A program made the position numbers and the translations under genes. From a candidate division FCPU426 bacterium (GTDB taxonomy: Bacteria; Oederibacteriota; Muellerivitia; Muellerivitales; Muellerivitaceae), in NCBI GenBank assembly GCA_003136635.1, contig PLFD01000013.1, forward strand, positions 54,196 through 118,195: 64,000 nt of DNA. Reading direction: 5' to 3'. Shown here piece by piece: positions 2,411 to 31,162 of this stretch. The stretch's first letter is position 1. Each line of letters begins with the position of its first letter. The notes under the pieces are model-generated. The model was not told the DNA's origin. It did not search any database and saw nothing but the letters and a program-made list of their open reading frames with translations.

Positions 2411-2606
2411 TTTAAAATTTTGAGAAACTTATTTTTCTCCCAATAAACCGTTCCAACAGGCGGTTGAACTGCCATCACCTTATCATTATTAGGAAAGACT
2501 TTCTTTATGTCATAGAGCAGCAGAAAATTAGACCCATTTTATAACCCAATAGTTTAAGATTATTAGGTATGCTTTCTTCCGATAAAACTTCACTTTTAAA
2601 TCATCC

Positions 2607-4673
2607 TTGGGTTTTCTTTTTTTTATTTCTTGTCTCAAATTTTTCACTAACTTATTTCGAATTGCCTGTTCAATCCAAGATCATCGTTATTTTTTCGGTA
2701 TCTTCATTCCCTTTCTCGCTGCCGTAGCATCGACGCATTCACATTCCTTTGTTCCGCCAGTAAATTCCGCCGAATGGCTCCCATCTTTCAATTTTTTAGT
2801 CGTAACTTTGTTATTTGTCCTAGCCATTGTCATACGCTTTTGCCAGTTGACTTCCATGTCCACTTGGCCAATATCAGATGAAGCCATTTGGGGATTTTTT
2901 GGCATGTATCTCAGCCAAAAATGGAATTGGGATTATTTCTATGCTTTTACCCAATTACCACCTTTTTCCTTCTGGAGCCTTGGATTATTTTTTAAATGCT
3001 TCGGTGTTTCTTTAATGTCACTCTGGGCCTTTCCAGCCATCTTGTCGGCATTAACACTGCCTTTGGCTTATTGGTCCGCGAAGTCCTTTTTTTCCAAAAG
3101 CATTTCGATCGTTTTTTCATGTTTTTGGGCCTTCAGTTTCTGGCCGATTTATTTGGATCGCTTATGCGTAGGACACGGATTACTTATTCTATGGCAATTA
3201 CTAACTTTTGTTATTTTAGGTCGTTTTTTAAATCGCCTAATAGTGCGTCCCTCAATAGGCCTGGCGTTGCTTTTAGGCATTTGCACCTCTATAGGATTTT
3301 ACATTTTGTTCCATGCGGCCATCATGGTGGTTTACGTGATAATCATCGTTACTTACGCCATTCTTCACTGCCGTTCCTCAAACCGAAAACAGTTATACGC
3401 TTTTCTTTTTTCGTTTTTTTTAGGTTCTGCGCCTATTATCTCAGCTTGGCTGCGATTAAATCATCAAAGTGATTATCTTCATTATTTATGGGCCTTTAAA
3501 AACAATGTAAGCCCTCTTTCGCAACTCAAGGTGATATCACTGTATATTTCGGGACTTTTTTGGGGTGCAGATACATACAATTATTCTTATCGGGCTTTTG
3601 GGGGCGGTTTTTTTAATCCTTGGCTTGGTTCCTTGTTTTTAATTGGACTAATTCAATCTCTCATAAACTGGAAAAAAGAAATTAATCTTTGTCTGATCTG
3701 CGGTTTAGTGCTTTTTCTAATGCCAGCATTTCTAACTGGAGAAGTTGAAATGTTTCGCATGGTTCTCGCTCTGCCTTTCATCCTTATTTTCTGCGCCCTG
3801 GGACTTCAAAATCTTCTAGAATCGGCTTCTCCTCAAATGAGTCTGATTTCTTTTTTAATAATTTTAATCATCGTAGCATTTTCTGATTTTTATCGTCTGG
3901 AGATAACCTACCGGGATTTTTGGAAAGCTAATCCAAGCGTTTCTTTACGTTACACAAAATCTTTACAACGATGGAAAGCCTATGAAATTCTAAATCAACA
4001 AGCAAAAAAATTTGGTCCTGGCATTATTTTAACCGAATTCGACCCTACGCCTTATGATCAAACTTTGACCATCGCAACTTATCCATTCAATACGGCTCGA
4101 AATCCTCGGTTGGAATGCTCCAAATCAACATGGGCGGGAGTAATCACCAATGTTAATTACGTCCCTTATCTTTATCACCAAATACCATCGTCCCAATGGT
4201 TCCCTCTATCGATTGGACTAGATACTTCTATGGACAATTTGGTTCTGGGAATCATCCCTGTCAAATCCAGTACTTCCAAAAAAATATACAATTGGCTCCA
4301 AATGGAAAAAAATCTCTGGCCAATAACTTATGCTTTGTTTCAAATGCCCTATGGTCAATTAAACCCCAATATTTCTAAAATGTTGATTCAATGCCGATCG
4401 TCGATCAATGGCGATCCTTTTCTTGAATCTTTGCTGGATGAAAAGCTGTTTATTTACGACATGTCCAATCACGACGCATTACAGGCTTTGAAAGACATGC
4501 AACGAGCTCTAACCTTAGGTTTTCCTGCGGCTCATCTTTACAATAATCTGGGTGTGCTTTGGTTCACATTGGGCAATTACGCCAATGCACGTGAATCTTT
4601 TAAAGCCGCTCTTCATGCCCCCTTAAATCATACCCAAGCCGCTTTAAACTTAAGTCGCACACCTGCTCTTTAA
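2607..4673 (+). CDS. GT39/ArnT-PMT-like membrane glycosyltransferase with TPR-like C-terminus, paralog B (5' end frameshifted relative to the ancestral ATG at 2569)
   Basis: It is co-linear with the 124..2256 product. An upstream ATG at 2569 opens a 53-codon frame (MLSSDKTSLLNHPWVFFFLFLVSNFSLTYFELPVQSKIIVIF...) that is homologous to paralog A's N-terminus. That frame falls out of frame with the body at the T6 run 2690-2695. The ORF-track start at 2607 is a TTG in the body frame. Confidence 0.55.
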   Translation: MGFLFFISCLKFFTNLFRIACSIQDHRYFFGIFIPFLAAVASTHSHSFVPPVNSAEWLPSFNFLVVTLLFVLAIVIRFCQLTSMSTWPISDEAIWGFFGMYLSQKWNWDYFYAFTQLPPFSFWSLGLFFKCFGVSLMSLWAFPAILSALTLPLAYWSAKSFFSKSISIVFSCFWAFSFWPIYLDRLCVGHGLLILWQLLTFVILGRFLNRLIVRPSIGLALLLGICTSIGFYILFHAAIMVVYVIIIVTYAILHCRSSNRKQLYAFLFSFFLGSAPIISAWLRLNHQSDYLHYLWAFKNNVSPLSQLKVISLYISGLFWGADTYNYSYRAFGGGFFNPWLGSLFLIGLIQSLINWKKEINLCLICGLVLFLMPAFLTGEVEMFRMVLALPFILIFCALGLQNLLESASPQMSLISFLIILIIVAFSDFYRLEITYRDFWKANPSVSLRYTKSLQRWKAYEILNQQAKKFGPGIILTEFDPTPYDQTLTIATYPFNTARNPRLECSKSTWAGVITNVNYVPYLYHQIPSSQWFPLSIGLDTSMDNLVLGIIPVKSSTSKKIYNWLQMEKNLWPITYALFQMPYGQLNPNISKMLIQCRSSINGDPFLESLLDEKLFIYDMSNHDALQALKDMQRALTLGFPAAHLYNNLGVLWFTLGNYANARESFKAALHAPLNHTQAALNLSRTPAL

Positions 4674-6056: not shown

Positions 6057-9000
6057 CTATATCACTTGATCTTTGCGCAAGAAGTAAAGTCGGGCTTCTT
6101 TTACTTTCAAACCCGTAAAAGTTTCGAGAAGTTCGCTGTAATAACCAATCTGCTTTCGATAGGATTCCAGACCCCGTTGAGGATCATGGTCCGTTTTATA
6201 ATCCACCACTACCCAGGCACCATCCTCCAAGAAAGCCAAATCGATCACCGCATTCAAAAAAGTACCTTCAGGGTTCTTTCCTGTCAGGGATAATTCCCTG
6301 AAAACTTGCGTCGATTTTTTTGCTCTCATCAAAAGACTACTCGCCAAAGCTTTAGCGGCTAGCTCAGCCGCTTCTAGGGTTTTACCGACTGAAAGCCCCA
6401 AACCGGGCCCCCAAAGCTTGGCCGCCTTAGCCAAAGTTTCGTTATCCCAATTCCAACCCTTTTCCAGCAATTGATGGGTCAAAACCCCTAAGGCCTTGCC
6501 TTGCTGGTCGCCCGAAGCTGGCGGGTTTTCTCCCTCCAAAAAGTACCCTTCCCGTTCAGATTTGTCGTCGTCGGTGTGGGCTAAAGAGGTCACCGATTGA
6601 AGCCGAGTTTTTCCCCTTCGTCTTTCGATCAAAGACTTTTTCATTTTTTCCAATTCTTTTAAATAAACCTTTTGGTCCTCCACAACTTGGCTGTTCCTTT
6701 CTTTTTCAACCAGGTCTACCGCCAGCGCCGAAACTGCCGAGCGGTCTTGAATGGCTGTGACGTTTTGGATTTTTAATGCCTTCAGATCAAACGATCCCCT
6801 AATAGGTTTGAGGAACCCACCACCCTTTTCTTGGGTAAAAAGTGGAATAACCAAACTTTCCTTCGCCCTGGTACATCCCACATAAAGCAGCCGAAGGATT
6901 TCAGCCTTTTCCTGCGCCTCTTCCTCTTCCTGGGCTTTCTCAAATCCCGCCGTACAAAGCTTTAGTTCCTTATCACCCGCTTTAAACTGAGCATTGCCTT
7001 GATGGCGGTTCACGATAAAGTCAGACTTTCGGGGTTTTTCAGGCGCCGCACCCGAAAGGATGACCACTGGAAATTCCAAGCCTTTCGCTTTATGCAATGT
7101 CATAAGAGTCACCTGATTGCCCGTTTCCTCCGGGCCGGGCGCTTCGCCCTCCATGGCGGCTTCTTCCCTTTGGCGGACCAGCCATTTCACAAAAGCCCGG
7201 TAGGTGAAATTTTGCGATTCCTCCAGGTCGCGGCACTGATTGACGACCTTCATCAGATTGGCCACCCGCTGTTCACCGTGCGGCTGACAGGACACTACCG
7301 CTAGCAAGTTGGTCTTTTCGTACAAATAAAGCAGGGTCTCGGCCGGACTCAGTTGACGGGTTTCCAGATACCATTGGCGTAAATAACGGAAAGCTTCGCC
7401 CATTTTCCCTTTGGCCCCACGTAAAAATTCAAAAACCCCTCCGGCTTCCCGGTAAAGAAACAGTTCCTCATCGGTAAAGCCGAACAAAGAGCTTCGTAAT
7501 AAACCCGCTAGGCTTGCCTCATCAGCAGGAGATTCCAGACAGGTTAAGAGCGTTTCCAGCGCCACAATTTCGGGGCGGTTGTAGAACTTCTTTCCTCCTA
7601 CGATCTGAAACTGGATATGGCGGCGTCTTAAAGCGCTCTCATAAACGGATTCGGTGTTTGATAGTTCGCGGAACAGGATGGCGATATCTCCCGCCTGCAG
7701 GGGCCGTAGAATCGGTCTGTCCTTGGGAGACTTGGGATCAGTGATCAGCGGTTTTTCACGCAGAAGTTGCTCGATAAAATCGCCCACCGTTTCGGCTTCC
7801 AACTCGCGAAAAGCCGCGGTGCTTTGGTCTTCTTCGGGTATCTCGGGCATTTCTAGACCGATGAGCGGGGATAACCGCCCCTGTTGCATATCTAACAGGC
7901 GATGAGCGCTTTGGGGATTATAAGGAAAAGGTCCGTCTTGGAATAGTTGATCGAATCCCCGGTTAACCCAATCCACAATGGGCGACAAAGTGCGGAAGTT
8001 TTCAGTAAGTTTTTCCACTTGGCCCCCGCAGGCCGCCAGACGGACCTTGGCTTCGCCATAAATTTCAACGTCAGCCCGGCGAAAACGGTAAATGCTTTGC
8101 TGGGGATCGCCCACTAAAAATAACTTCCCGGGTTCCAGTTCAACCTTTTGCCATGACTTGGCTGGCTCACCTGCCGCGAGCCCACCAGGCGAGCGGCGAG
8201 CTTTGGTTGTGCCAAGGGCTTTACCAACCCTTGGCATACTTTTTTCAGATAAAAAGAAAACTATTTCTACCTGCAAAGGATCGGTATCCTGGAATTCATC
8301 GACAAACAAATGATCGTAGCGTTTTTTGAGTTCTTCCCGTACTTCCAGCCGGTCTTTCACCAGGTCCCGGGTCTTGGACAAGAGGTCGTCGAAATCGAGA
8401 AAGCCCTGTCGGGTCTTCATTTGGGCGTATTCGGCCAAGTAATCCCAAAGCCATAAAGCCGCTTTTTGAACCGCCGCATCTTTTGCTTGGGCCCCAAAAG
8501 TTTCCTGAGTTTCCCGCAAGGTTTCGATATGGGCTTTCACGTCTGCTAGGGCTTCTTTGCCCCAGTTGCCCTGACTGCCCACATTGCCGACTTTGGGCAC
8601 ATTGAGCCCTGCCAGTACGTAGAGAAGATTATCACCCGCAAGAACCTCAACTTCCCGCCAAATTGGGCCAAATTTCCCCAGTTTTTTCACCAGGCTGTCG
8701 TCAGGCGCGACGACTTTGGCTTTTTCTTGAATGAAAGCCCATGTCCGTTTCAAATCCAACAAAGTACTTTCGGGGTCGGGTAAATCAGATACCACCGGAG
8801 GCTCAAGAACAGACCGATTGCTCAAGAGATGGTTTTTCAGTTTTTCCAGATGCTCAAAGGTGCCGCCCAGACGGAAGAATGGCATGAGGCTTTCCACCGG
8901 GCGGGCCAGTGATTTTTTCAACCAGTTTTCCCAAGCTTCAGCTTCCAGGGCGTCGCTTTGTACCTGGTCGAGCACCGCAAATTGGGGATCAACCCCTACT

Positions 9001-9374
9001 TCCACCGGGTATTCCCGTAAAAGTGACGAGCAAAAAGAATGGATGGTCGAAACCGAGGCCTGTTCCAAATCTTTGAGCGCCCGGCGAAGTCGTTTTTCCC
9101 GTTCCTTTTGCGCTGCAGGTGAAAGTTTCAGCAAACTTTCAGAATCAAATTCTTTTTCCAGCCGAAGCCTTAGCCGTTCCACTAATTCCCCGGCGGCCTT
9201 ATCTGTAAAGGTAATGGCGGCGATACGGGCAAGCGATACTCCTTTTTCCAAAAGGAGTGCCACTAGACGGTCGATCAGCAAGGTGGTCTTACCCGTGCCG
9301 GCCCCAGCGTCTACCGCGAAGGAAATGTCGAGATCGGAAATAATCTTTTGACGGGCTGATTGGTCGGAGATCAT
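6057..9374 (-). CDS. addA: UvrD/PcrA-family helicase with C-terminal PD-(D/E)XK nuclease domain (AddA/RexA-like)
   Basis: It has a Walker A (GAGTGKTT) and UvrD-like helicase motifs. The C-terminal nuclease motif reads ...VVDYKTD... It is adjacent and co-directional to the AddB-like gene. Confidence 0.8.
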   Translation of the reverse strand: MISDQSARQKIISDLDISFAVDAGAGTGKTTLLIDRLVALLLEKGVSLARIAAITFTDKAAGELVERLRLRLEKEFDSESLLKLSPAAQKEREKRLRRALKDLEQASVSTIHSFCSSLLREYPVEVGVDPQFAVLDQVQSDALEAEAWENWLKKSLARPVESLMPFFRLGGTFEHLEKLKNHLLSNRSVLEPPVVSDLPDPESTLLDLKRTWAFIQEKAKVVAPDDSLVKKLGKFGPIWREVEVLAGDNLLYVLAGLNVPKVGNVGSQGNWGKEALADVKAHIETLRETQETFGAQAKDAAVQKAALWLWDYLAEYAQMKTRQGFLDFDDLLSKTRDLVKDRLEVREELKKRYDHLFVDEFQDTDPLQVEIVFFLSEKSMPRVGKALGTTKARRSPGGLAAGEPAKSWQKVELEPGKLFLVGDPQQSIYRFRRADVEIYGEAKVRLAACGGQVEKLTENFRTLSPIVDWVNRGFDQLFQDGPFPYNPQSAHRLLDMQQGRLSPLIGLEMPEIPEEDQSTAAFRELEAETVGDFIEQLLREKPLITDPKSPKDRPILRPLQAGDIAILFRELSNTESVYESALRRRHIQFQIVGGKKFYNRPEIVALETLLTCLESPADEASLAGLLRSSLFGFTDEELFLYREAGGVFEFLRGAKGKMGEAFRYLRQWYLETRQLSPAETLLYLYEKTNLLAVVSCQPHGEQRVANLMKVVNQCRDLEESQNFTYRAFVKWLVRQREEAAMEGEAPGPEETGNQVTLMTLHKAKGLEFPVVILSGAAPEKPRKSDFIVNRHQGNAQFKAGDKELKLCTAGFEKAQEEEEAQEKAEILRLLYVGCTRAKESLVIPLFTQEKGGGFLKPIRGSFDLKALKIQNVTAIQDRSAVSALAVDLVEKERNSQVVEDQKVYLKELEKMKKSLIERRRGKTRLQSVTSLAHTDDDKSEREGYFLEGENPPASGDQQGKALGVLTHQLLEKGWNWDNETLAKAAKLWGPGLGLSVGKTLEAAELAAKALASSLLMRAKKSTQVFRELSLTGKNPEGTFLNAVIDLAFLEDGAWVVVDYKTDHDPQRGLESYRKQIGYYSELLETFTGLKVKEARLYFLRKDQVI

Positions 9375-12300
9375 GGCAGGTCCTCCAACTGGTAATAGTT
9401 TTTTACTTTTTGATCTTCTTTTTTTCGTTTACCCCGGTCTTCCATGCCGGTGCCGCAAAGTTTGCGGTAATCGCAATGGTCGCAGGCGGTGCCCACCGAA
9501 GGAAAATGCCCCTGGACTACACCCTCCGCCACCGTTGTGAGCACTTGATCCAGAATGGGTTTCACTTCACCGGCGTCAGACGGATCAAAAGCCACTTTTT
9601 TATAGTCGCCCCGGCGGGTCATAAAATCGTACAAGGCCTGCTTGGAGATTTTTTCGGGATAAAGGTGGCGCAAAGCCCAAAGGTAAAAGGGCAATTGCAG
9701 TTTGGTACCGCTCTTCACGCTGTTCTTCTTGGTCCCAGCATCACTGCCGGTCTTATAGTCCACCACCCGAAGGGCTTGTCCATCGAGGGAAAGGTCTACC
9801 CGGTCCATGCGGCCTTGGAGCTTTAATTTTTGGCCATCCGCCAGTTCAAAAACGACTTCCTTTCCCTTTTCACCGAAAGCCACTTCGAAAGCAAAGGGGG
9901 TCCAATCCGGATCGGCCAGCACATCTTTCAGCACTGCCTGCAGATCTGAATCCATTTGTTCTTTTTCCCAATGCCATAACCCCGGCGCGCCGGGTATACC
10001 GGTCTTTTCGAACTGGCGGAAAGCTTTTTGAGTTTCTTCTTCCAGTACTTGAAGGCCTTGGGCAACATCCCGCTCAGCCACCCATTGCTCCTCCACTCCC
10101 CGGCGGAGGGTTTTCTCCAAAATATCGTGTATCAAGTTTCCCCGGTCAGAAGCTTGAATCTGGAGGATTTTCTCGGGATCGGGATAGACCATCAGGTGCA
10201 GAACGTAGCGGTAAAAATACCGAAGGGGGCAGGCCGCGAAAGTTTCCAACCGGGAGGCCGAAATAGAACTACCGGTCAATTCATGGTGCTGGGTCAAGGC
10301 TCTCAGAGCCGAAGCCCCGGTCAGAATGCCGTCATAAGCGGTAAAAAAGGGGCTGGCCTGTCGGTTCTTCAAAAGCTCTTTGCCTTCGAAATAGAAAGGC
10401 ATATCCCGGGTAACTGCGAGGGCGGGCACTGGATTGCCCTGGCGGGCCAAGTTGACGGAGGTGAGCAGGGTTTCCACCGGATTGCCGCAAGAGGCCATGT
10501 CGGGTTTAACCCAGTCGTTAACCGTTACGACCTGCACTAGGTTAACCGCGTCACCCAAACGGCTGACCCGGCGGCCCAAAATGGCTTCAGCGGATTCAAA
10601 CAGATAGATAGACGGTGTGCGAGGTGACCCCGTGGAAGGATTCAGGTGCGGCGCGGTCAGAATGAGAGACTTTTGAGCGCCCCGGACAGCCAGAAGAAAC
10701 AACAACCGCTCCTCCAAAGCACCCGCTTGTTTGGGGGCGATCTCTTCATCACCACGGCCCGTAATCAAGAGGCGTTCTTCGTCGAGTAGAAGCGGGTCTT
10801 GGCGCACCAGGCGCGGCACGAACTTTTCGACCAGGCCCGGCAATACAGCTACCTCGAAAGACACTCCCCGGGCCTGCATCAAATCAACCACCTGCGCCCC
10901 GCCCTTTTCCAGTTGTCGAGAGGGGCTTTGCTTTTGTTCGAGCATTGCCGCTAATAATTCTTTGAGGTCTTCCGAGGCAACGGTCAACTTAAAGGAAGCG
11001 CTCAAAAGTGACAGCGATTCGAGCACCGCGGTTGTTTCCCGCCGGGTATCAGAAATATTAAGAAATTTTTCAAGAAACCCTTTGAGTAAAACCAGCTGTC
11101 CGCCCCAGCTTTTTTCTTTTTGAAACCGGGCCCGGGCATTAAAAAGGGCGCCCAAAGCTTTTTCGAAAAAACGAGAGGCCTGCAGAATCTCTCCCGCGGG
11201 AGAATTTTCATCCTCTTCGGCGTTTTGCCTTTGTTTTTGCTCACGCCAGGCCAAAAGCCTGGAAATCCACTCTTTCTCTCCCTCCACAACCCGGGCTTCG
11301 CGGCTGATCACATCCCAAGACGAGGGATTCCAATTTTCGGGTTGAAGGTCAAACCCTTCTGGATTGAGGCAGGGACAGGAAAGCAGATTGATGGTGGTAT
11401 CCCGGGAAAAATCGCCGGTGAATCCGTCAAGAAGCAAGAGCAGGGTTTTGGCTTCGGTTGATTCGATCAAAGGAGCCGGCAGCGTCTTGGAAAGAGGAAC
11501 ACCCTGGGACCCGAAAGCGTGAGGCATCAGTTTGCGGTAAGAAGCGGTCTCCCGCAGAACCACCGCGCAGTCCGAAAGAAAAACATCTTTTTGGTTTGCC
11601 TCTTGGAGCAGTACCCGGGCAATCTCCTGGGCTTCCCGGGGCTCGCCGGGACAAAGAATGATTTGGCAGTCTGAAGAGACGTCTGCCGGAGGCGAAACCA
11701 AGGGAGCTGCCTCATCTTGAAAAAGACGATCCTGCAGCCTCTCCCGAGGACTTTCACCCCGCGCTTTCCAACGGTCTTGCTTTTTCACTTGCCCGAAACT
11801 TTTTGCCCAATCCACAAAAGGTTTCGCGTATTCAAAAGCCGGACTGTCCTCATAAGGGATAAACCACCCGCTCTCACCCGCGGCGCTCAAGTGGCGCAGG
11901 ACTTTCTTCTGCACGGCCGAGGCATCATAGAATCCATAGACCCAGACGACCCCCTCGCTTCGCGGAGGTTTCGCAAGCACTTTAAAATAGGTATCCTCCC
12001 GGTCAAGCCAGCGGCCTTTCTTTTTCCAGTCTTCATAGGCCTTAAAAAGCCCAGCAAATTCCTTGAGCTTGAGCGCCAACCGCGTTTCTTTTGCTTTCTC
12101 CAGACGGGCAGCGTGGCCGGCCAGACTCTCCGGCGTATAGAGTCCTTCTTTTAATTCGCTCAGCGTAGCCCTGAGAGCGTGATAAAACCCAGGCGTCTGG
12201 CTGACCGGACCAAAGGAACGGCTTTTAGAAAGTAATGATTTAGTCGCTTCTTTAAGTACCAGAGGCACCAGTACATCGGGCAGGTTTTGAAAATCTTCCA

Positions 12301-12538
12301 CGATGAATGTTTCTTCTGCCACGGCTTCCATGTAATGACGAAGTGTGTGAATTTCCAGGTTAAAAAGATTCTGACCCTTTTCGGTTAAAGTTTTTCGCAA
12401 ATGACCGACTAATAGAAAGTTGGGAACGAGAACGGTAACCTTCTCAAAGGGATTTTTCTTACGATAAGCCTGGAAGGCTTTAAGTAGTTCTTCTTCTAAA
12501 AAAGGCTGATAGGGACCCAAATAAAGGGAAATACTCAC
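9371..12538 (-). CDS. addB: AddB/RexB-like helicase-nuclease subunit (degenerate helicase N-terminus, C-terminal PD-(D/E)XK nuclease with Cys cluster)
   Basis: The C-terminus carries ...RVVDYKTG... and GTACDHCDYRKLCG, an Fe-S staple-like Cys pattern. Its start overlaps the stop of the addA-like gene by 4 bp. Confidence 0.75.
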   Translation of the reverse strand: MSISLYLGPYQPFLEEELLKAFQAYRKKNPFEKVTVLVPNFLLVGHLRKTLTEKGQNLFNLEIHTLRHYMEAVAEETFIVEDFQNLPDVLVPLVLKEATKSLLSKSRSFGPVSQTPGFYHALRATLSELKEGLYTPESLAGHAARLEKAKETRLALKLKEFAGLFKAYEDWKKKGRWLDREDTYFKVLAKPPRSEGVVWVYGFYDASAVQKKVLRHLSAAGESGWFIPYEDSPAFEYAKPFVDWAKSFGQVKKQDRWKARGESPRERLQDRLFQDEAAPLVSPPADVSSDCQIILCPGEPREAQEIARVLLQEANQKDVFLSDCAVVLRETASYRKLMPHAFGSQGVPLSKTLPAPLIESTEAKTLLLLLDGFTGDFSRDTTINLLSCPCLNPEGFDLQPENWNPSSWDVISREARVVEGEKEWISRLLAWREQKQRQNAEEDENSPAGEILQASRFFEKALGALFNARARFQKEKSWGGQLVLLKGFLEKFLNISDTRRETTAVLESLSLLSASFKLTVASEDLKELLAAMLEQKQSPSRQLEKGGAQVVDLMQARGVSFEVAVLPGLVEKFVPRLVRQDPLLLDEERLLITGRGDEEIAPKQAGALEERLLFLLAVRGAQKSLILTAPHLNPSTGSPRTPSIYLFESAEAILGRRVSRLGDAVNLVQVVTVNDWVKPDMASCGNPVETLLTSVNLARQGNPVPALAVTRDMPFYFEGKELLKNRQASPFFTAYDGILTGASALRALTQHHELTGSSISASRLETFAACPLRYFYRYVLHLMVYPDPEKILQIQASDRGNLIHDILEKTLRRGVEEQWVAERDVAQGLQVLEEETQKAFRQFEKTGIPGAPGLWHWEKEQMDSDLQAVLKDVLADPDWTPFAFEVAFGEKGKEVVFELADGQKLKLQGRMDRVDLSLDGQALRVVDYKTGSDAGTKKNSVKSGTKLQLPFYLWALRHLYPEKISKQALYDFMTRRGDYKKVAFDPSDAGEVKPILDQVLTTVAEGVVQGHFPSVGTACDHCDYRKLCGTGMEDRGKRKKEDQKVKNYYQLEDLP

Positions 12539-14241: not shown

Positions 14242-15021
14242 ATGAAATCTTTTCAAGCAATACCGTTACCCGAATCCCTTAAACCCCTTATTCCACAACT
14301 GGCGCATGATTTTCGAGCCGCTATCAGCTATGTGTCTTTTTATCCTGTGGATAGTTCTTTTGTCGCCCAATCGGTCCAAAAACTTTATGAGGATTTTCAA
14401 AAAATTCTTCAATGCGGACAGCCTTTAATCTTTCGCGCTGAAAATCAAAAACTTTATATCAACGATCAATTTCTTTCGTCTTTTGACGATATCATTCACT
14501 TATTTCAAACTCAAAATATCCTCGGCGTTGAAATAGAAAAAGATATTTCAGAAGCGGAATTAACCGATTGGCTTCAAATTATCGCTTTTTCGTCAGAGGA
14601 AGATATTAAGAACTATGAAAAAAATCAAACCGCTCACATTCGTCTCATACTCAAATTGAACACCGAACCCATGTCTAAAATTCTGAAAGAGCCGATAGCT
14701 TTCGCGTTAAACGCATTCGAATCTTTCGACGCCTTGACACAGCGTTCTCACTCTAATCGAATCGATGGCTTTCATCAAAATCATCAGGCGCTTTTGGGTT
14801 TCGTGGAAGAATCCTGGCAATTTATCCAAACGCAGCAGAAAAAACTGGGGCGTTCCGCCGAAATGACTTATTGGTCGGAAACTTTCGATCAATTTTTCAA
14901 ACATCTGCTGGACAGAATGGAAAAACCCTCTCCGGACCTTAAAGATTTGAATGTTTGTTTTAAAAATCCGTCAGAGCTGTTTTTAAACGAAATAGAAAAC
15001 CTATTTGGTTTAGAACAGTGA
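14242..15021 (+). CDS. Hypothetical protein (lower-GC insertion)
   Basis: The ATG at 14242 is preceded by a GAGGAG RBS; the ORF track starts 51 nt earlier without one. I recognise no domain. The gene is visibly AT-richer than its neighbours and its 3' end overlaps the convergent nuclease gene. Confidence 0.5.
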   Translation: MKSFQAIPLPESLKPLIPQLAHDFRAAISYVSFYPVDSSFVAQSVQKLYEDFQKILQCGQPLIFRAENQKLYINDQFLSSFDDIIHLFQTQNILGVEIEKDISEAELTDWLQIIAFSSEEDIKNYEKNQTAHIRLILKLNTEPMSKILKEPIAFALNAFESFDALTQRSHSNRIDGFHQNHQALLGFVEESWQFIQTQQKKLGRSAEMTYWSETFDQFFKHLLDRMEKPSPDLKDLNVCFKNPSELFLNEIENLFGLEQ

Positions 15022-16038
15022 CAGTTGGTCCGTTGAAACAGCCTTAATTCTTTTTCTGCCGGAAGGAATCGCCGTGCCAAAAACCGCCGCGGCGGTACCG
15101 GCTACACTGGGAGCTACCGATTCGACAGGATCCGCTAAATTTTCAGCCGCGGTGGTCAAAGACGGCACAGGGGTCGCATCCACAACCGAGGCAGTTTCTT
15201 CTTCCTCGAAATTTTTATCTTTGCTCTTCACCCAGGCTTTGCCGTCAGAACAAATGGTTAAATACTCGCACCATTTGCAAAGAATGCTGGTTTTGGTGGA
15301 ATAGCTTTTCGCTTTTTCAATGGTTTCGATTTTGGCAATGTATTTTTGCTTGAGCCAATCAATTTCTTTAGAGTTTCTCTCGCCCATGACCTGATCTTTT
15401 TCAAAAGCCACAAAATGCCAAAGTAATTTAAACTTTTCTTTAGGTCCAAATCGGGGATTTTGGTAAAGCCCCGCTTGATAAAGAGCCAATTGATCCTCGC
15501 CTCTGGCATCTTCTTCCGACATTTTACGGGCGCTGGTTTTATAGTCATGAATCCACAGAGTGCCGTACTCATCACGGCCAAGACGGTCGATAAAGCCCTG
15601 CATCTTAAACTCACCCTTGGGATCTAAATTAAAAGCGACCTTTAACTCAATGCCTTCGGTCTTATCCTGGTCAAAGGGGTGATATTGGTGAAAGTAATTT
15701 TCTACAAACAATTGGCCTTTATGGAAATAGTCCTCTACTGTCTGCCCCGACTTAGCGATGCGAAGAGTGTTGGTAAAGTTACGCTCTTTTTGTTTTTGAA
15801 GTGATTGCTGCCAATGCTTTTCCCAAAGCTGGTTAAAATAATTAACCAGCTCATTCACCGTGGGAACTTTGTGGTTTATTTGCTCATAAAGATATTCCAT
15901 GGTCTCGTGAAAGCGGGAGCCCAGGAACAATTCAACGCCTTCGGCTACGGGCGAAGGCCTGCGTTCGATATAGCGGAATTGAAATTGAGCGGGACAGGTG
16001 AAGTAAGTGTTAATGCGGGAGTAAGAATAAATCGTCAT
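15010..16038 (-). CDS. Cas4/RecB-like PD-(D/E)XK nuclease with 4-Cys Fe-S staple and a low-complexity A/T/V/S-rich C-terminal tail
   Basis: N-terminus YSYSRINTYFTCPAQFQFRYI (the PDDEXK_1 start, first Cys). Core motif GFIDRL...IHDYKT. C-terminal Cys pattern CKWCEYLTIC (C-X2-C-X5-C). This is followed by an approximately 70-aa low-complexity tail. Confidence 0.75.
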   Translation of the reverse strand: MTIYSYSRINTYFTCPAQFQFRYIERRPSPVAEGVELFLGSRFHETMEYLYEQINHKVPTVNELVNYFNQLWEKHWQQSLQKQKERNFTNTLRIAKSGQTVEDYFHKGQLFVENYFHQYHPFDQDKTEGIELKVAFNLDPKGEFKMQGFIDRLGRDEYGTLWIHDYKTSARKMSEEDARGEDQLALYQAGLYQNPRFGPKEKFKLLWHFVAFEKDQVMGERNSKEIDWLKQKYIAKIETIEKAKSYSTKTSILCKWCEYLTICSDGKAWVKSKDKNFEEEETASVVDATPVPSLTTAAENLADPVESVAPSVAGTAAAVFGTAIPSGRKRIKAVSTDQLSLF

Positions 16039-23645: not shown

Positions 23646-24014
23646 ATGAAGAAACTTTTCGCAATGGGAATCGCCGCCCTGTTTTTGGCGATGGCTCAAG
23701 TTACTTACGCGGATGACGCCGCTACAGCCGCGCCAGCTGGCAAAGCCATGAATTTCACCGTAGTGGACGTAGCCTGCTATATCAGCAAGGGCGCTTACGG
23801 TCCGGACCATCAAGCTTGCGGCAACAAGTGTGTCAAAGCCGGGGGCGAATTGGCTTTGAAGAATGGTGAAAATCTTTATATTCCCGTGACTAGCGATTAC
23901 AAATCGGCCCGCAAGCAGTTTGTTAAAAAATGCGATACCGATGTCACCGTCACCGGTAATGTGGTCAGCAAGGGCGGCGTGAATTATTTTGTGATTAGCG
24001 ATAACGCGAAATAA
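23646..24014 (+). CDS. Secreted Cys-containing hypothetical protein
   Basis: Signal peptide MKKLFAMGIAALFLAMAQVTYA, 4 Cys residues, a strong RBS gaggagga, and a terminator downstream. Confidence 0.5.
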   Translation: MKKLFAMGIAALFLAMAQVTYADDAATAAPAGKAMNFTVVDVACYISKGAYGPDHQACGNKCVKAGGELALKNGENLYIPVTSDYKSARKQFVKKCDTDVTVTGNVVSKGGVNYFVISDNAK

Positions 24015-24082: not shown

Positions 24083-25495
24083 TTATTTCGGTTCATATTC
24101 AGCCATCAGTCTGGTTCGAAGGTTCATTAATTTCTGGCTGGTTCCCACTTTATAAGTATGCGGGTTTTCAAACCGTTTTCGTTCAGGCGAAAGCTTGGCC
24201 AGCCGTTCTTTCGCGTAAGCCGCCGCTTCTTTCACCGTCAAGTGGGTCAGCGTCTTCCCCTCTTCCATGACCTTATACAAAATATTTTCGGGATAGCAGT
24301 GCGCCACGCGGCTTTTTTGATCGGGAAAGAGCGGATGATAAATATATTCGGTGGCCTTTTCGTCCTCTAAAAGAATTCCATCGCCGTAAAAAAACCCATC
24401 CGGGTCCGTATAACGCACAACTTTTTTAACGCCTGGCAAAGAGGTCTTAGCCGGATTTTCCGATATTTTCAGACAGGGTTTCCCGTCGTAATGGCTGAGC
24501 TTATAAACCCCGTCCAAAGCTGGCGTGTCCTGTCCGGTTAAAAGGCTCGTTCCCACACCGAACACATTAATCGGCGCGCCCTGATCATGAAGACTTTTAA
24601 TAATGGTTTCATCCAATTGATTGGAAGCTACTATCTTCACATAGTGAAGGTCCGCTTGATCCAGCATGGTTCGGGCCCGCTTACTCAAATAAGCCAGATC
24701 CCCCGAGTCCAACCGAATACCCACCAGCCGATGGCCTGCTTGCTCTAATTCCTTCGCCACAATGATGGCGTTGGGTATTCCGCTTTCCAGCGTGTGGTAG
24801 GTATCCACCAGAAAAATAGAACGATCCGGATAAATTTTGGCGAATTCACGGAAGGCTGTCAGTTCATCGGGAAAACTTTGAATCCAGGAATGGGCCTGCG
24901 TGCCCGAAGGAGAAAGGTGATAAAGAAAGGAGGCATAAACATTCGAGGTTCCACTGACCCCGCCGATGGCGGCGGCCCGGGAAGCCTGAATGCCGCCCAG
25001 CCCCTGGGCCCTTCGAAATCCAAAGTCAATTACCCGGCGGCTATGGGCCGCCGCAACCATTCGGGAAGCCTTGGTCGCGATGAGGGATTCAAAATTAATA
25101 AAGTTGAGAAGCAGGGTTTCGATCAACTGGGTTTCTAAAAAGGTGCCTTCGACCCGAAGAATAGGCTCCAGGGGGAAAACCACTTCCCCTTCCCGAACCG
25201 AGTAAATCTTGCCTTTGAACCGGAAGTTTTGAAGATAGTCCAGAAAAGGCTTTTGAAACCCCAACTCCCTTAAATACTCCAAATCTTCCTTTTCAAACTT
25301 CAAATCTTCCAGCGCTTCCAAAAGGTCCGCCAGCCCGGCAAAGATCACGTAGCCACCCTTGAAAGGGTTTTCGCGGAAGAAGTAATCAAAAACGGCGGGT
25401 TTGTCGGCGCGGCCCGTTAAAACAAACCCTTGCGCCATGGTCAGTTCATAAAAGTCGGTATAAAGGCCTGAGTGTTTGGGAATGAGGGATGACAT
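24083..25495 (-). CDS. pncB: Nicotinate phosphoribosyltransferase
   Basis: An NAPRTase-family sequence (LYTDFYELTMAQGF...) of about 470 aa. Confidence 0.85.
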   Translation of the reverse strand: MSSLIPKHSGLYTDFYELTMAQGFVLTGRADKPAVFDYFFRENPFKGGYVIFAGLADLLEALEDLKFEKEDLEYLRELGFQKPFLDYLQNFRFKGKIYSVREGEVVFPLEPILRVEGTFLETQLIETLLLNFINFESLIATKASRMVAAAHSRRVIDFGFRRAQGLGGIQASRAAAIGGVSGTSNVYASFLYHLSPSGTQAHSWIQSFPDELTAFREFAKIYPDRSIFLVDTYHTLESGIPNAIIVAKELEQAGHRLVGIRLDSGDLAYLSKRARTMLDQADLHYVKIVASNQLDETIIKSLHDQGAPINVFGVGTSLLTGQDTPALDGVYKLSHYDGKPCLKISENPAKTSLPGVKKVVRYTDPDGFFYGDGILLEDEKATEYIYHPLFPDQKSRVAHCYPENILYKVMEEGKTLTHLTVKEAAAYAKERLAKLSPERKRFENPHTYKVGTSQKLMNLRTRLMAEYEPK

Positions 25496-25504
25496 GGATA
25501 GACC

Positions 25505-26509
25505 CTATTCTTCGATTTCGGTTAAAAATGATTTGACCGTATTTTCATTAATTTCGCCACCTTTTGAAAAAATGGTTTTCAATTCAGAAAAGTCAAAATC
25601 ATACGGATTTCGAATGTGGGAGGCTGTTAATTGAAGTAGAGCAGATGTGGTTAAAAGAACGGTCGTTACGTTTGTTTGCTCTCGAATATCTTGAACTGCT
25701 TTTTTGCAGTCCGAATTGAAAGACCGCGCCACAAAAACAAAAAACAAAGTTTTAATTCCCTCTTTCTCAAGGGATTCTCGATAGTCACCAATATATCGTT
25801 CCGCTTTCCGTCTATCGTTGGCATCAATCGAATAACCATCTTTATGCGATTTAGCGTCGCCAATAATGGCGTAATGGTCTTTAGGTCTCTTAGCAATAAA
25901 ATCAGGATTTTCACCTTGGCCTTGTCCTAAAAGGTTGGTTTTAAATCCTAGTAATTGAAAAGCTATACCCACTTGGGTTTCAAAATCGTTTGAGTCGTCT
26001 GTATCTTCAAGGTTTTTAAGAACTGGCGGCACAAACAAATGAAAATCTTCGAGGTGAGTGGTAATAACATTTGTCATTTCTTTTTCATCGGATTTCGGAA
26101 GATAAACTAAAACATCCGCATATTCAGGTCTATCTTTGGCGAAGTCTTTAAAACGAAGAGGAATTTCAGAAAATTTACAGTTAAATTTATATTGAAAGGT
26201 TCTACCGATCGGCTGAAATTTGTAATAACTCCATTCAGCCTTAGATGGCGGATGTTTTAATTTATAAAGTATGTCTGAATATGACTTCCACATTTGTTCT
26301 ATTGGAATTAAAGGAATATCTCGAACTGTGGAACGAGGCTCGAACCCAGATTCTGTCATTAAGTTACTAAAATTAAGAAATAATTTTATAAGGTAATGAT
26401 TAGTTACATTTGTTTCTGAAATGAATTCTTCAAAAAAAGGTGGTCGACCTTTAATGCCCGCTAATCGCTTCATTTCTTGAATACAGTATTCTTTGGTAAT
26501 ATCGGCCAT
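25505..26509 (-). CDS. Two-domain protein: unknown N-terminal domain (~180 aa) plus C-terminal FokI-like (restriction-endonuclease-fold) cleavage domain
   Basis: The C-terminal half aligns to the FokI catalytic domain across the active site: PDFIAKRPKDHYAIIGDAKSHKDGYSIDANDRRKAERYI versus PDGAIYTVGSPIDYGVIVDTKAYSGGYNLPIGQADEMQRYV. The downstream helices also align (FFVFVARSFNSDCKKAV... versus FLFVSGHFKGNYKAQL...). The gene is much more AT-rich than its flanks. Confidence 0.7.
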   Translation of the reverse strand: MADITKEYCIQEMKRLAGIKGRPPFFEEFISETNVTNHYLIKLFLNFSNLMTESGFEPRSTVRDIPLIPIEQMWKSYSDILYKLKHPPSKAEWSYYKFQPIGRTFQYKFNCKFSEIPLRFKDFAKDRPEYADVLVYLPKSDEKEMTNVITTHLEDFHLFVPPVLKNLEDTDDSNDFETQVGIAFQLLGFKTNLLGQGQGENPDFIAKRPKDHYAIIGDAKSHKDGYSIDANDRRKAERYIGDYRESLEKEGIKTLFFVFVARSFNSDCKKAVQDIREQTNVTTVLLTTSALLQLTASHIRNPYDFDFSELKTIFSKGGEINENTVKSFLTEIEE

Positions 26510-26569
26510 TTATTATTCCTGGATCAATTAAAAACTGAACCTATTTAGAACTTTAATATAGCAGGTTGT

Positions 26570-28519
26570 TTATCGGCAGAGCCACTGGGGCAAAGCCATG
26601 GTGAGGAACGGGATATAGGTAATCGCGAAGACCATCAGATGCAAAATGATGTACATCGGCAGAACCGCCATATACACCTCGGTCATGGGTTTCTTGAAAC
26701 GGTAGGACGACAGGAAAAGGTTCAGCCCCAGGGGCGGCGCCAGAAAGCCCAGTTCCATATTGGCCAAAAAGATAATCCCCATGTGTACCGGGTCTACCCC
26801 AAAAGCGGCGGCCATGGGCATGAGGAGCGGCACCACCACCACGATAGCGGCGAAAATCTCCAGCAGGCTTCCCACCACGATCAGCATTATGTTGACCATC
26901 AACAGGAATACCCATTGCTGATGAACCGTGTCATGGACCCATGCGGCCAGGTGTGCGGGAACCTGGGCGTCCACCATGTCGTTGGTAAAACCGAGCGACA
27001 CGCCGAGGATGAGAAGAACCCCGCCGACCAGGATGCCGCATTCGGTGATGACTCTCGGCACATTCTTGAACTTGAGTTCGCGGTAAATAATCACTTCCAC
27101 TACAAAAGCGTAAAGGGCGGTGAGCGCTGCGGATTCGACCAGCGTGACCTTGACGATGAAGAGAAAAAAGAAAACCACAAGGGGCAGTAAAAGTTCCCAC
27201 TTGGCGGCCCAGGCTGAGGAGAGGGCTTCTTCCTTATGGAAAGGATGTTTGGAAGCCTGGGCTTTGGAACCCTTCACCACACCCCACCAAGCGGTGATGA
27301 CCAACAGCAGTATTCCCGGCACCAACCCTCCCAGAAACAACTGGTCGATCGGCGTGTGGGAAACTACCCCGTACAAAATAACCGGCAGACTGGGTGGAAA
27401 GAGCATACCCAACGAACCGGCGGAAGTTAAAAGACCCAAAGCATCCCGCTCTTTATATTTTTCAGCGATCAGGATGGGCATCAACAACCCGCCCAAAGCC
27501 AGGATGGTCACACCTGAACCGCCGGTGAAACAGGTAAAAAAAGCGCAGACCAAAGCGGTTACAATCGCCGGGCCGCCCCGCAGTGAGCCGAAGAAAGCCT
27601 GAAATACCCGAAGTAGACGTTGGGACGCGCCGCCCTCAGCCAGAAAATAACCCGTGAGGGTAAATAACGGAATAGTTGGAATAGTCGGCGAAACCACCAT
27701 GCGGTAGGTTTCGGCGGGAATGGAATCGATCGGGGTGTCAGAGTTCCACAAAAAGATCAGGGCTGCGCCGCCCAAAACCAGAAACACCGGCATGCCCAAA
27801 ACCACCGCCACCATCAACAAGCCAAAACAAATGTAAATAAAAGTTTCCGAGGGACCATGAATAATCGGCCCCAGTGACGCCAACCCCACCGCGACTGCCA
27901 GCGTCAATAACCGAAGGCTGTTTTTATCTGAAACGCGCCAGATCATACGGGCCAAAATCATGCTGAAACCCACGGGTAAAAAGAAAAGGATGAACCATTT
28001 GGAGATGCCGATGGCGATGATATCGCCGACGCCTTTTTCGATCATCGAAAACTGGAAACTGGCTTTGACCAGATAAGCGGTGATGGCCGCGCCCAGGGCG
28101 GTCGTTATGACACGGACAATGGTTTTATAACGGTCGGGTATCATGCTGGCGGTGGTCGCCAGCTGCAGCAGTTTGCCTTCCCTCGCCGCGATGGCCCCGC
28201 CGAACATCATGATGGCCAGAGTAGCGTGCTGAACCAGGGCCAGCGAGCCGGGAATGGGGGATACGGGGACGAAGTTAAAATAAGCGTGCAGTTTGCGGCT
28301 GACGATATCCAAAAGGGGCAGGACCATCATGGTCGCGAAGAAAAAGGTTAAAAGAAGGTTCTCGCCGTAGTGCCAGAAAGCAGGCTTGGCAGGTGCCTCG
28401 CCGGGATGGGCCATCACGCTGTCGTGAACTTCGGTGGTCGGCACCAAAAGGGCTTCTTGCTCCCCCGGAGCAGGAAGTTTAGGCGCGCGCTTTTGGCCCG
28501 AACGTTTTGGGGAAGCCAT
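26570..28519 (-). CDS. TRAP transporter fused small/large permease (DctQ-DctM fusion)
   Basis: A roughly 650-aa polytopic protein. The N-terminal region of about 4 TM helices is DctQ-like and the C-terminal region is DctM-like. It lies directly upstream of the DctP-like gene. There is an N-terminal Pro/Ala-rich extension, so the start is uncertain. Confidence 0.8.
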   Translation of the reverse strand: MASPKRSGQKRAPKLPAPGEQEALLVPTTEVHDSVMAHPGEAPAKPAFWHYGENLLLTFFFATMMVLPLLDIVSRKLHAYFNFVPVSPIPGSLALVQHATLAIMMFGGAIAAREGKLLQLATTASMIPDRYKTIVRVITTALGAAITAYLVKASFQFSMIEKGVGDIIAIGISKWFILFFLPVGFSMILARMIWRVSDKNSLRLLTLAVAVGLASLGPIIHGPSETFIYICFGLLMVAVVLGMPVFLVLGGAALIFLWNSDTPIDSIPAETYRMVVSPTIPTIPLFTLTGYFLAEGGASQRLLRVFQAFFGSLRGGPAIVTALVCAFFTCFTGGSGVTILALGGLLMPILIAEKYKERDALGLLTSAGSLGMLFPPSLPVILYGVVSHTPIDQLFLGGLVPGILLLVITAWWGVVKGSKAQASKHPFHKEEALSSAWAAKWELLLPLVVFFFLFIVKVTLVESAALTALYAFVVEVIIYRELKFKNVPRVITECGILVGGVLLILGVSLGFTNDMVDAQVPAHLAAWVHDTVHQQWVFLLMVNIMLIVVGSLLEIFAAIVVVVPLLMPMAAAFGVDPVHMGIIFLANMELGFLAPPLGLNLFLSSYRFKKPMTEVYMAVLPMYIILHLMVFAITYIPFLTMALPQWLCR

Positions 28520-29560: not shown

Positions 29561-30496
29561 TTACTGCACAAACAAAGTATCTTCACGCGACAACAGCCAG
29601 CGGGCGCGCTTTTGCATGATTAAATTGACCAGCCTCGTACTTTTATTTTGATCCGGATCGATGGCGAGGGCTTTGTTCAGCATGTCCTCGAAATCCTGGC
29701 GGTTTTGTTCTTTTTCATCCACCGCTTCGGCGTAGTTCACATAAGTAGAAGCGCTCAAGCCTTTGTTGAGTTCTAACGCTCTGTCAAAATGTTCCTTCGC
29801 CTTTTTCACCGAACCTCCCATGAGAACCGGTTTACCCGCTTCGTAGGTAATCAGAAACTCATGGAGAGACCCGTTGTCATAGTCGGGATTAATCTCATAG
29901 GCTTCATAGAGAAGAGCTTCAGCCTGAGGAATATCCGCCACCAACTCCGGATCATCTTTGCCGATAGAGATAGCTGCCATCCAGGAAACGCCCGTCCAAT
30001 AAAGAAGATCCATATCATCTTTGTTCATTTTTGATACTGCGGCTTTAGGGTCCGTCATGATCATTTGGCTAAAGTGATCGTGGCGGGTATCCAGACCTCT
30101 GAGTCCATAACCCAGTGCCCGTTGGTAAAGTCTTCTAGCCCGGATCCGCATTTCATGGGCCTTGGCATAGTCCGTATCCGCGATGTAATCCGCCTCACAT
30201 TGCACATAAGCGTAGCTGTATTCGGTAAAATTTTTGGTTAAAGCGGTAAGAAGGGCTGTGTGTTGGGGGGTAGCGGCCAGAATGCTTTCCATAAATTTAA
30301 GGCTAAAAGGAACAGCTTCCTTGATTAACTGCGGATCATCATCGGAAGAAAAAGTGTCACCCTCTCCCGCCAAACCATCGGCCATGGAGTTAACGGCGAT
30401 GGATTTAATAAAACAGCCGTTTAAAACCGGTGAAAATCCGATTAAAAGCAGCAAAACCCAAAGACGATATAAAGAATAAACCTTATTTTGGAACAT
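29561..30496 (-). CDS. TRAP-transporter-associated TPR lipoprotein (TatT-like)
   Basis: Signal and lipobox (LNGC), an all-helical TPR-like body, and a position immediately upstream of dctP and dctQM. This is the organisation described for TPR-associated TRAP transporters. Confidence 0.7.
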   Translation of the reverse strand: MFQNKVYSLYRLWVLLLLIGFSPVLNGCFIKSIAVNSMADGLAGEGDTFSSDDDPQLIKEAVPFSLKFMESILAATPQHTALLTALTKNFTEYSYAYVQCEADYIADTDYAKAHEMRIRARRLYQRALGYGLRGLDTRHDHFSQMIMTDPKAAVSKMNKDDMDLLYWTGVSWMAAISIGKDDPELVADIPQAEALLYEAYEINPDYDNGSLHEFLITYEAGKPVLMGGSVKKAKEHFDRALELNKGLSASTYVNYAEAVDEKEQNRQDFEDMLNKALAIDPDQNKSTRLVNLIMQKRARWLLSREDTLFVQ

Positions 30497-30751
30497 CCCG
30501 TATCCTCGCTAAATTTTAGAAATGGGCCAACGTTTTACCCCTGGGAAACAAGGGTGTCAATACGCCTATGAGAGCCTAAAACTATGGAGAATTATAAAGA
30601 TTTTCAAAGTTTCCGGGGGAAATATCCCCTTTGGGCCTAAAAGCAGGGGTTTTGCCTTTTAAAAATAAAAAGGAGATCAGGATTCCCCAACCTCCTCGAT
30701 ATTTTATAAACGAATCCTTCGTTGTTTCATACAACCGTGAAAAGGTTCAAT

Positions 30752-31162
30752 TTAATTGGCGTCGTTACTATCGTCGGGTGCATTTGAATCGGTTGATGTT
30801 GATTGCCCGGGATGTTTAGCCTGATAAATGACTTTGGAATTGTCATCTAACAGCTGGTTGATTTGAGTTTTTTGATCATCCGTCAAAGGCTTTTTCCCGT
30901 TTTCATTAAAATCAGCTCTGACCTGATCGCCTATCGATTTCAATTTGTCCATCAAAGCCGTCGCCTGATCTTTGGAAAGCACCCCGGATTTTAAACCCTG
31001 GCGAATTCGCAGAGCTTGATAGCGAAGCCGCGCGCGAACTTCCGATTTTCCATGTGGTGCTGCAACCGAAGCGCCCGTTGTAGGAGTCGCGTCTTGGGCC
31101 AGTGAAAATCCCGCGACCGTCGTAATTAGCAGCGACAATAAACCTGCCAGTAACTTCTTCAT
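30752..31162 (-). CDS. Periplasmic Spy/CpxP-family (LTXXQ motif) stress protein
   Basis: A signal peptide and two LTXXQ-type motifs (LSKDQATAL, LTDDQKTQI). The protein is helical and about 136 aa. Confidence 0.6.
   Translation of the reverse strand: MKKLLAGLLSLLITTVAGFSLAQDATPTTGASVAAPHGKSEVRARLRYQALRIRQGLKSGVLSKDQATALMDKLKSIGDQVRADFNENGKKPLTDDQKTQINQLLDDNSKVIYQAKHPGQSTSTDSNAPDDSNDAN

Follow-up and report, generated by a model that had tools for sequence, protein, structure and literature searches.

We describe a solitary gene for a compact FokI-type nuclease in a 64,000-nt stretch of DNA, hereafter the window (contig PLFD01000013.1 of assembly GCA_003136635.1, positions 54,196 to 118,195), from a candidate division FCPU426 bacterium. 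The open reading frame (ORF) at 25505-26509 on the minus strand of the window is complete, starts with ATG and encodes 334 aa followed by a stop codon. The predicted protein consists of two small N-terminal modules of the HNH_repeat family, a flexible linker and a C-terminal FokI-type cleavage domain. Judged from its sequence and genomic context, on which all our statements about its function are based, we give about an even chance to the view that it is a stand-alone, methyltransferase-independent, dimerising restriction-type defence nuclease. A first-pass annotation, made from the letters of the window, had already pointed to a solitary FokI-type nuclease, encoded by a low-GC insertion, with no DNA methyltransferase in view. 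This core reading is supported by the sequence, the family loci and the pattern of selection, which extend it to a horizontally acquired and intact nuclease. That annotation had missed the HNH_repeat modules, the possibility of a homing endonuclease, the variable cargo slot in which the gene resides and its frequent co-travel with Phd-ParE genes in relatives.

The C-terminal part of the protein (aa 173-334, positions 25508-25993, minus strand) belongs to the FokI cleavage-domain family by profile score, catalytic residues and predicted fold. The Pfam model FokI_cleav_dom (PF09254) matched residues 167-304 with 46.4 bits (E=4e-12; gathering score 25), and when a profile of 30 family members was compared with all PDB sequences, the sole match was FokI (1FOK, E=3.3e-9; also 2FOK). 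In this profile alignment, which reaches into the FokI linker helix, the nPDg of the family falls on KPDG of FokI and DAK falls on DTK (VDTKA). An AlphaFold model computed from the family alignment had a mean pLDDT (predicted local distance difference test) of 89.3, with both domains confident throughout, and a Foldseek search of the PDB with this predicted model gave FokI as the top match (2FOK, E=8e-8); Nt.BspD6I and the small subunit of R.BspD6I came next. The alignment to FokI through P202-D203 and D218-A219-K220 that was proposed at first pass is borne out by these three approaches, and so is the expected conservation of the catalytic triad: D203 (within P-D, codon 25901-25903, minus strand), which aligns with the first catalytic Asp of FokI, and D218 and K220 of the D-x-K motif (codons of D218-A219-K220 at 25850-25858, minus strand), aligned to VDTKA, are invariant in 30 full-length relatives of 23-75% identity, as are E177, R233 and Y239. 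The most conserved segment besides the catalytic residues is a helix with D232, R233, E237 and Y239 that aligns with the dimer-interface helix of FokI, where D232 corresponds to FokI D483. By analogy with FokI, pairing of two nuclease domains would be needed for double-strand cleavage. PADLOC-DB v2 recognized the C-terminal 160 aa by its generic REase_II model (25.5 bits), and no model of a named system matched. The Mrr_cat model did not match the window protein, scored 24.8 bits with the orthologue at locus L011 (gathering score 21) and 12-17 bits with relatives, and was outscored by the FokI model in every case.

The N-terminal ~180 aa were initially believed to match nothing recognizable, a statement that has to be revised, since the N-terminal ~140 aa are made up of two HNH_repeat modules. 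Pfam family PF18780 (HNH_repeat, 'homing endonuclease associated repeat'; gathering score 26) matched residues 4-57, scoring 27.1 bits with the whole protein as query and 31.2 bits when the N-terminus was searched alone. This first module (26339-26500, minus strand) is predicted to form a four-helix, helix-turn-helix (HTH)-like bundle and is presumed to bind DNA. The second module (aa 67-124, positions 26138-26311, minus strand) is a degenerate copy that is visible solely through profile-profile comparison and the predicted structure. Profile-profile alignment (hhalign) of residues 1-62 with residues 63-140 yielded E=3.2e-5, with residues 3-29 in register with 67-93, and both modules share one four-helix topology in the model (6-20/26-32/37-44/47-53 and 70-84/90-95/102-109/113-124), with the HTH-like fold. 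A single-sequence Smith-Waterman alignment of the same two segments was not significant (z=-0.7). In one relative, P0044, a Pfam HNH_repeat stretch is located at the equivalent of the second module (position 69-114). The linker that follows (aa 135-172, positions 25994-26107, minus strand) is the least conserved region (19% mean identity in the 30-sequence set) and is predicted to be disordered at residues 141-152, where the pLDDT falls below 50; its end aligns with the FokI linker and first helix. Pfam found neither FokI_D1 nor FokI_dom_2 in the window protein, and both were detected in the control protein P0087. No viral structure matched the fold of the N-terminal model at E<=0.001, and a word-indexed search with the N-terminal profile returned one 76-aa match, which affords no view of other fusions of the module.

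No DNA methyltransferase adjoins the nuclease gene, either in the window or, within a few genes, at ~13 distinct family loci (L001-4, L005, L006, L011, L016, L017, L019, L021, L023, L025, L026 and L045), so that the absence of a cognate methyltransferase noted at first pass for the window extends to the family. A rough motif screen, as opposed to a profile scan, found the DPPY/NPPY and PCQ motifs of DNA methyltransferases in none of the 55 main ORFs of the window. Its two genes for S-adenosylmethionine (SAM)-dependent enzymes, at 53038-54108 and 55695-57746 (~27-31 kb away), encode CMAS-family cyclopropane-fatty-acid synthases, that is, lipid enzymes, as had been stated for the only methyltransferase-like genes in view. 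As a control, we considered longer proteins with the same nuclease domain, and these do adjoin methylase or restriction-modification (R-M) genes: a DUF1156/N6_N4 DNA methylase at L034 and a Type I R-M locus at L041. Others are found beside GmrSD (L035) and AbiEii (L027). Because methyltransferases appear at the control loci and at none of the loci of the 340-aa proteins, their absence characterizes the 340-aa family. The nuclease clade, taken together, is tied to defence loci. A gene of ~885 aa follows longer FokI-like proteins or their fragments at three loci (L034:6664-9327, L037:6680-9334 and L039:6586-9252; DUF1156 + N6_N4_Mtase in L034), and the two may constitute a separate, recurrent nuclease-methylase pairing, distinct from the system described here.

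The genes next to the nuclease differ from locus to locus. They include Phd-ParE (three loci), HicA with a HicB-like ORF, MNT-HepT, Fic, a RES-domain protein, an HNH gene and a DpnII-like restriction endonuclease, and also SNase, RNase_T-HD, Bro-N, a polysaccharide-synthesis gene, dUTPase, an amidohydrolase, a TonB-dependent receptor and DUF1697. The suggestion that homologues might neighbour defence genes therefore held in part: defence or toxin-antitoxin genes occur at many loci, but several other loci are single insertions among housekeeping genes.

Public assemblies hold a 100%-identical protein, and the family members are named 'hypothetical protein' in every source. A word-indexed search of 5.8 billion proteins returned only eight full-length relatives (45-100% identity), and an exhaustive search of 1.84 billion representatives returned 292 matches, ~30 of which have the same ~330-350-aa architecture; the length is steady over these roughly 30 cluster representatives. 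The remaining matches have the nuclease domain alone in common, typically at the C-terminus of 430-480-aa proteins. The query for the metagenome scan was a 15-sequence family alignment. One relative comes from a metagenome-assembled genome that is likewise labelled 'candidate division FCPU426 bacterium'. Searches of NCBIfam, PHROGs and the PDB with the single sequence gave no match, no relatives were found in IMG/VR viral contigs, INPHARED phage records or PHROGs, and a plasmid search gave a single weak match limited to the nuclease domain. In the searchable literature, we found no account of an architecture that combines HNH_repeat with a FokI domain, whether under PF18780, among defence genes related to FokI or among homing endonucleases of the FokI type.

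The gene evolves under purifying selection, and its two halves have different histories. Pairwise nonsynonymous and synonymous substitution rates (dN/dS) against three relatives were 0.147/1.12, 0.20/1.14 and 0.23/1.67; the resulting ratios of ~0.13-0.18 are rough owing to the saturation of dS, with dN far below dS throughout. Among close relatives, the mean identity is 45% in the N-terminal half and 73% in the C-terminal half, and dN is 2-3 times higher in the former. The L011 protein is closest to P0004 in its N-terminal half (78%) and to P0002/P0003 in its C-terminal half (86-88%), and P0006 shares 81% of its C-terminal half but only 32-35% of its N-terminal half with P0002/P0003. Even the copies that are inserted next to pncB, as in the window, differ in this respect: their N-terminal halves are 56% (L011) and 55% (L005/P0005) identical to that of the window protein, and the L016 N-terminal half has a dN of 0.76. 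Such discordance between the halves indicates that DNA-binding modules have been exchanged against a conserved nuclease.

In the window, the nuclease gene is accessory cargo in a variable slot between two core genes. On its downstream side, pncB (nicotinate phosphoribosyltransferase, 24083-25495) begins after 9 nt, and on its upstream side the TRAP transporter genes dctQM (26570-28519) end 60 nt before it, all on the minus strand. Both flanks are conserved and lie outside the mobile element; their identities were taken from synteny with relatives bearing NAPRTase, DctQ/DctM, DctP and TAtT Pfam domains. The pncB orthologues with NAPRTase domains are 77-95% identical, and the 3' end of dctQM shares 78-92% nucleotide identity with relatives, among which L008, L012 and L016 bear DctQ/DctM domains and the same gene order. 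The GC content is 0.33-0.40 over the nuclease gene and 0.50-0.57 in both flanks, and with 0.35 the ORF has the lowest value among the 55 main ORFs of the window, which, together with the synteny, confirms the low-GC single-ORF insertion between pncB and the TRAP genes seen at first pass. At every locus, the nuclease is AT-richer than its surroundings (GC 0.35-0.41 vs 0.42-0.55).

A comparison of the dctQM-pncB junction among close pncB orthologues (77-95% identity) revealed several states, by which the slot is a small accessory-gene hotspot. It is empty in L012/L013 (pncB ~81% identical to that of the window), with a 29-nt spacer (L012:6972-7000); it holds a low-GC gene for a 264-aa generic SAM methyltransferase in L008 (L008:6162-6956, pncB 87%) and a low-GC 207-aa lipoprotein-like ORF in L010 (L010:1279-1902, pncB 95%); it holds the nuclease alone in the window, and Phd-ParE plus the nuclease in L011, L005 and L016 (pncB 77-83%). 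The L008 methyltransferase was considered as an orphan partner of the nuclease and was rejected, as it matches only generic small-molecule SAM families (Methyltransf_11/25). Occupancy is patchy when set against the relatedness of the hosts: L010, the nearest relative of the window, lacks the nuclease, and L012, the nearest relative of L005 (pncB 89.6%), has an empty slot. The four occupied genomes have 2-9 nt between the nuclease stop codon and the pncB ATG. The empty L012 site reads ...GGTCTATAATGCCCTC ahead of the pncB ATG, of which the window retains just GGTCTAT+CC as its 9-nt junction GGTCTATCC (25496-25504, minus strand), a leftover of the native pncB upstream spacer. With the spacer cut to GGTCTATCC, a TATAAT-like box has been lost, and pncB is probably transcribed from upstream. 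Hallmarks of transposition or integration were absent at the insertion, where we looked for a target-site duplication, terminal inverted repeats, a tRNA gene and an adjacent integrase, and promoter and terminator consensus sequences matched no more often than by chance.

The low-GC Phd-ParE pairs of the three orthologous slots are located 19-24 nt upstream of the nuclease (L005:1866-4087, L011:135-699 and L016:1357-1966). The L005 island also contains a RES-domain protein and adjoins the NAD-salvage genes pncB and pncA. RES toxins degrade NAD+, and their placement beside NAD-salvage genes may be a coincidence. The gene pncA, encoding an isochorismatase-family nicotinamidase, directly follows pncB in L005 (6666-7214), L011 (3164-3712) and L012 (8534-9082) and is not present there in the window or L008.

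The nuclease gene is horizontally mobile. A 66% identical copy, P0003 (loci L001-L004 and L014), resides on a TraG-bearing conjugative element, together with a PIN-like gene, a DprA-like gene, an MmeI-type R-M enzyme, an Mrr_cat protein and a TIR-domain protein. After the stop codon of this copy, an 11-nt spacer is followed by ~72 nt that align with the 5' end of pncB (L001:7545-7630; also in L002, L003, L004 and L014). This pncB fragment is decayed and has an in-frame stop: where the window has MSSLIPKHSGLYTDFYEL, it reads VSSLIPKNLDFYT(stop). A comparison of the whole window with the 160 nt that follow the element copy gave a single significant match (E=1.2e-6, 72.6% over 84 nt), exactly to positions 25505-25424, which run from the nuclease stop through the spacer to nt 72 of pncB. 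The presence of this fragment implies that the element copy was captured from a pncB-adjacent chromosomal site. On the other side of the gene, an AT-rich 60-nt leader (26510-26569, minus strand) moves with it and contains the 18-nt motif TAAAGTTCTAAATAGGTT at 26538-26555; the motif occurs nowhere else in the window, where 0 occurrences would be expected by chance, and every element copy (L001-L004 and L014) has it in the corresponding position ahead of the nuclease. Between L001 and L006, homology is confined to the ORF, ~29 nt upstream and 11 nt downstream.

Three observations lead us to favour a defence function: the family and its nuclease-domain relatives lie among defence and toxin-antitoxin genes, the slot behaves as a hotspot, and the recognition half is shuffled and diversifying. 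In the mechanism that we propose, the two tandem four-helix, HTH-like HNH_repeat modules would bind DNA and the flexible ~35-residue linker would tether to them a FokI-type domain with a single predicted PD...DxK active site. Two nuclease domains would pair, as in FokI, and cut both strands away from the bound site. The host genome might be spared by a long or rare composite site, by a two-site requirement or by dependence on modifications of foreign DNA, as in the modification-dependent nuclease suggested at first pass. The gene moves from genome to genome, has reached a conjugative element and diversifies by swapping its DNA-binding modules against the conserved nuclease module. Several points weigh against this interpretation. 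It calls for some means of sparing self-DNA, and none of the known domains that read modified bases (Mrr_N, SRA, EVE/PUA, YTH and similar) was recognized in the window protein. The uniform label 'hypothetical protein' and the generic PADLOC match to the C-terminus do not mark the family as a defence system, and its N-terminal modules come from a Pfam family named for homing endonucleases. In L021, L023, L025 and the window, the gene is a single insertion among housekeeping genes with no clear defence island, and toxin-antitoxin neighbours mark mobile or accessory DNA generally rather than defence specifically.

The two homing-endonuclease-associated modules make a selfish, free-standing homing-endonuclease-like gene a serious rival, although an unlikely one in our view. 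The long site recognized by the HNH_repeat modules would be located at the dctQM-pncB junction or the 5' end of pncB, or close by, the FokI-type domain would cut alleles without the gene, and repair would copy the gene together with adjacent sequence. Such behaviour would fit the exact single-ORF insertion 2-9 nt from pncB in four genomes, the intact empty site of L012 and the patchy occupancy, as well as a shared mobile unit of about the ORF with ~30-60 nt upstream and ~10 nt downstream; the decayed pncB fragment on the conjugative element would then be target-gene sequence that co-travelled. The layout of modules, linker and nuclease also resembles that of modular GIY-YIG and HNH homing enzymes. 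However, taking sequence as a proxy for specificity, different DNA-binding halves at the same pncB site are unexpected if one conserved site is recognized, and most family members are inserted at unrelated sites beside toxin-antitoxin or defence genes. The alleles at the pncB site diverged anciently (dS saturated) and yet are under purifying selection, no member was found in a phage, intron or intein, and the nuclease domain is not of a recognized homing class (LAGLIDADG, HNH, GIY-YIG, His-Cys box, I-Ssp6803I-type PD-(D/E)XK or EDxHD). To our knowledge, no FokI-type homing endonuclease has been described. The bolder proposal, that this is the first natural homing-type endonuclease built on a FokI-type domain, a new class spreading at the dctQM-pncB junction and hopping onto conjugative elements while swappable HNH_repeat modules set its long-site specificity, is somewhat less likely again.

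The toxin-antitoxin neighbours could alternatively point to a toxin or abortive-infection effector that stays inactive until triggered, for instance with the upstream Phd-ParE-type module, and then kills or arrests the cell by non-specific DNA degradation. A same-strand toxin-antitoxin pair lies directly upstream in L005, L011 and L016 (Phd-ParE) and in L017 (HicAB), L001 has a weak PIN-like gene in that place, and FokI itself is auto-inhibited until bound and dimerised. We nonetheless consider this improbable, as the copies in the window, L006, L021, L023 and L025 have no such partner, the toxin-antitoxin types vary by locus so that no specific partner is conserved, and the protein contains no sensor or antitoxin-like domain. 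More improbable still is an ordinary Type IIS-like enzyme with its cognate methyltransferase gene in another part of the genome, an option raised at first pass. The type of cleavage domain, the adjacent DNA methylases of some same-domain relatives and the fact that our view spans 64 kb of the genome speak in its favour; the lack of a methyltransferase near the gene at ~13 loci, unlike the longer relatives, and of a FokI-type recognition domain disfavours it, as does a mobile unit that is the ORF alone, since a lethal restriction gene without protection would not spread in this way. The last option of the first-pass annotation, a degenerate R-M remnant, or any non-functional gene, we reject as very improbable on the basis of the low dN/dS, the invariant catalytic triad, the constant length and the confident model of both domains, even though the gene is AT-rich and solitary and one assembly contains a split copy. 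In that assembly (a 9560-bp ENA contig; 90% cluster of the window protein), a frameshift after residue ~144, within the linker, divides a near-identical copy into P0286 (179 aa) and P0281 (155 aa); the copy may be a true pseudogene, or an A-rich run may have been misassembled. The other copies, including L022, are intact.

Further features of the window lie apart from the nuclease locus. Two more low-GC stretches (0.39-0.42), at 124-4673, where the window opens with two large ORFs of 710 and 688 aa, and at 30400-30800, may be additional acquired DNA. Adjacent minus-strand genes at 6057-12538 encode proteins of 1105 and 1055 aa, and a 342-aa PD-(D/E)XK nuclease (PDDEXK_1, E=3e-30) is encoded near them at 15010-16038; the former may be a helicase-nuclease repair pair and the latter a separate nuclease. 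Beyond pncB, a 122-aa secreted-looking protein (23646-24014, plus strand) is followed by a 109-aa ORF.

For a candidate phylum that is still poorly known (FCPU426-related), the locus gives a clean picture of core genes flanking a slot with variable cargo, and the pncB fragment on the conjugative element is a molecular footprint that gives the direction of gene movement. If active, this natural protein of 334 aa would be a compact nuclease in which a FokI module is combined with a small, swappable DNA-binding unit and no methyltransferase is needed. It would represent a new architecture among solitary restriction or defence nucleases, assign a function to the uncharacterised PF18780 repeat and possibly provide a short natural scaffold for targeted nucleases.

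Among known enzymes, FokI, Nt.BspD6I and the small subunit of R.BspD6I have the same cleavage fold and PD...D-x-K site, with alignable linker and dimer-interface helices, and these Type IIS enzymes also have the same modular design, in which a non-specific nuclease is tethered to the part that binds DNA. The DNA-binding part differs, consisting here of two ~55-aa HNH_repeat modules (~140 aa) and in FokI of the D1-D3 recognition domain (~380 aa), with total lengths of 334 and 583 aa, respectively. As it has neither a FokI-type recognition domain nor, at any family locus examined, an adjacent methyltransferase, the window nuclease is not a Type IIS R-M enzyme as defined. The closest proteins outside the family are uncharacterised proteins of 430-480 aa (P0023 and P0027; L027, L034, L035 and L041), which are 37-44% identical in the nuclease domain and also occur at defence loci, but their N-terminal regions are longer, different and without a Pfam match, and some have an adjacent methyltransferase. 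Mrr and other Type IV enzymes likewise are single genes without a methyltransferase, encoding ~300-340 aa with a small N-terminal DNA-binding domain (putative in the window protein) and a C-terminal Mrr/FokI-like PD-(D/E)XK nuclease. They share the defence-island neighbourhood, the L001 copy lies next to an Mrr_cat gene and the L011 orthologue, unlike the window protein, exceeds the Mrr_cat gathering score, whereas the N-terminal domain of the window protein is neither Mrr_N nor a known modified-base reader. Homing endonucleases of the I-TevI/I-BmoI type, and HNH enzymes with HNH_repeat, have in common with it the small helical modules (putatively DNA-binding here) on a flexible tether, a nuclease with a single active site, the PF18780 family, the single-ORF intergenic insertion beside a conserved gene and the presence/absence polymorphism. 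The window protein differs from them in its FokI-type nuclease, in the DNA-binding halves that vary among same-site copies and in its absence from phages, introns and inteins. In principle it also resembles the engineered zinc-finger and TALE (transcription activator-like effector) nucleases, in which an array of small modules is linked to a dimerising FokI-type domain, although it is a natural protein and its putative binding modules are related neither to zinc fingers nor to the repeats of TALE proteins; should the homing interpretation prove true, it would in effect be the natural counterpart of these engineered nucleases.

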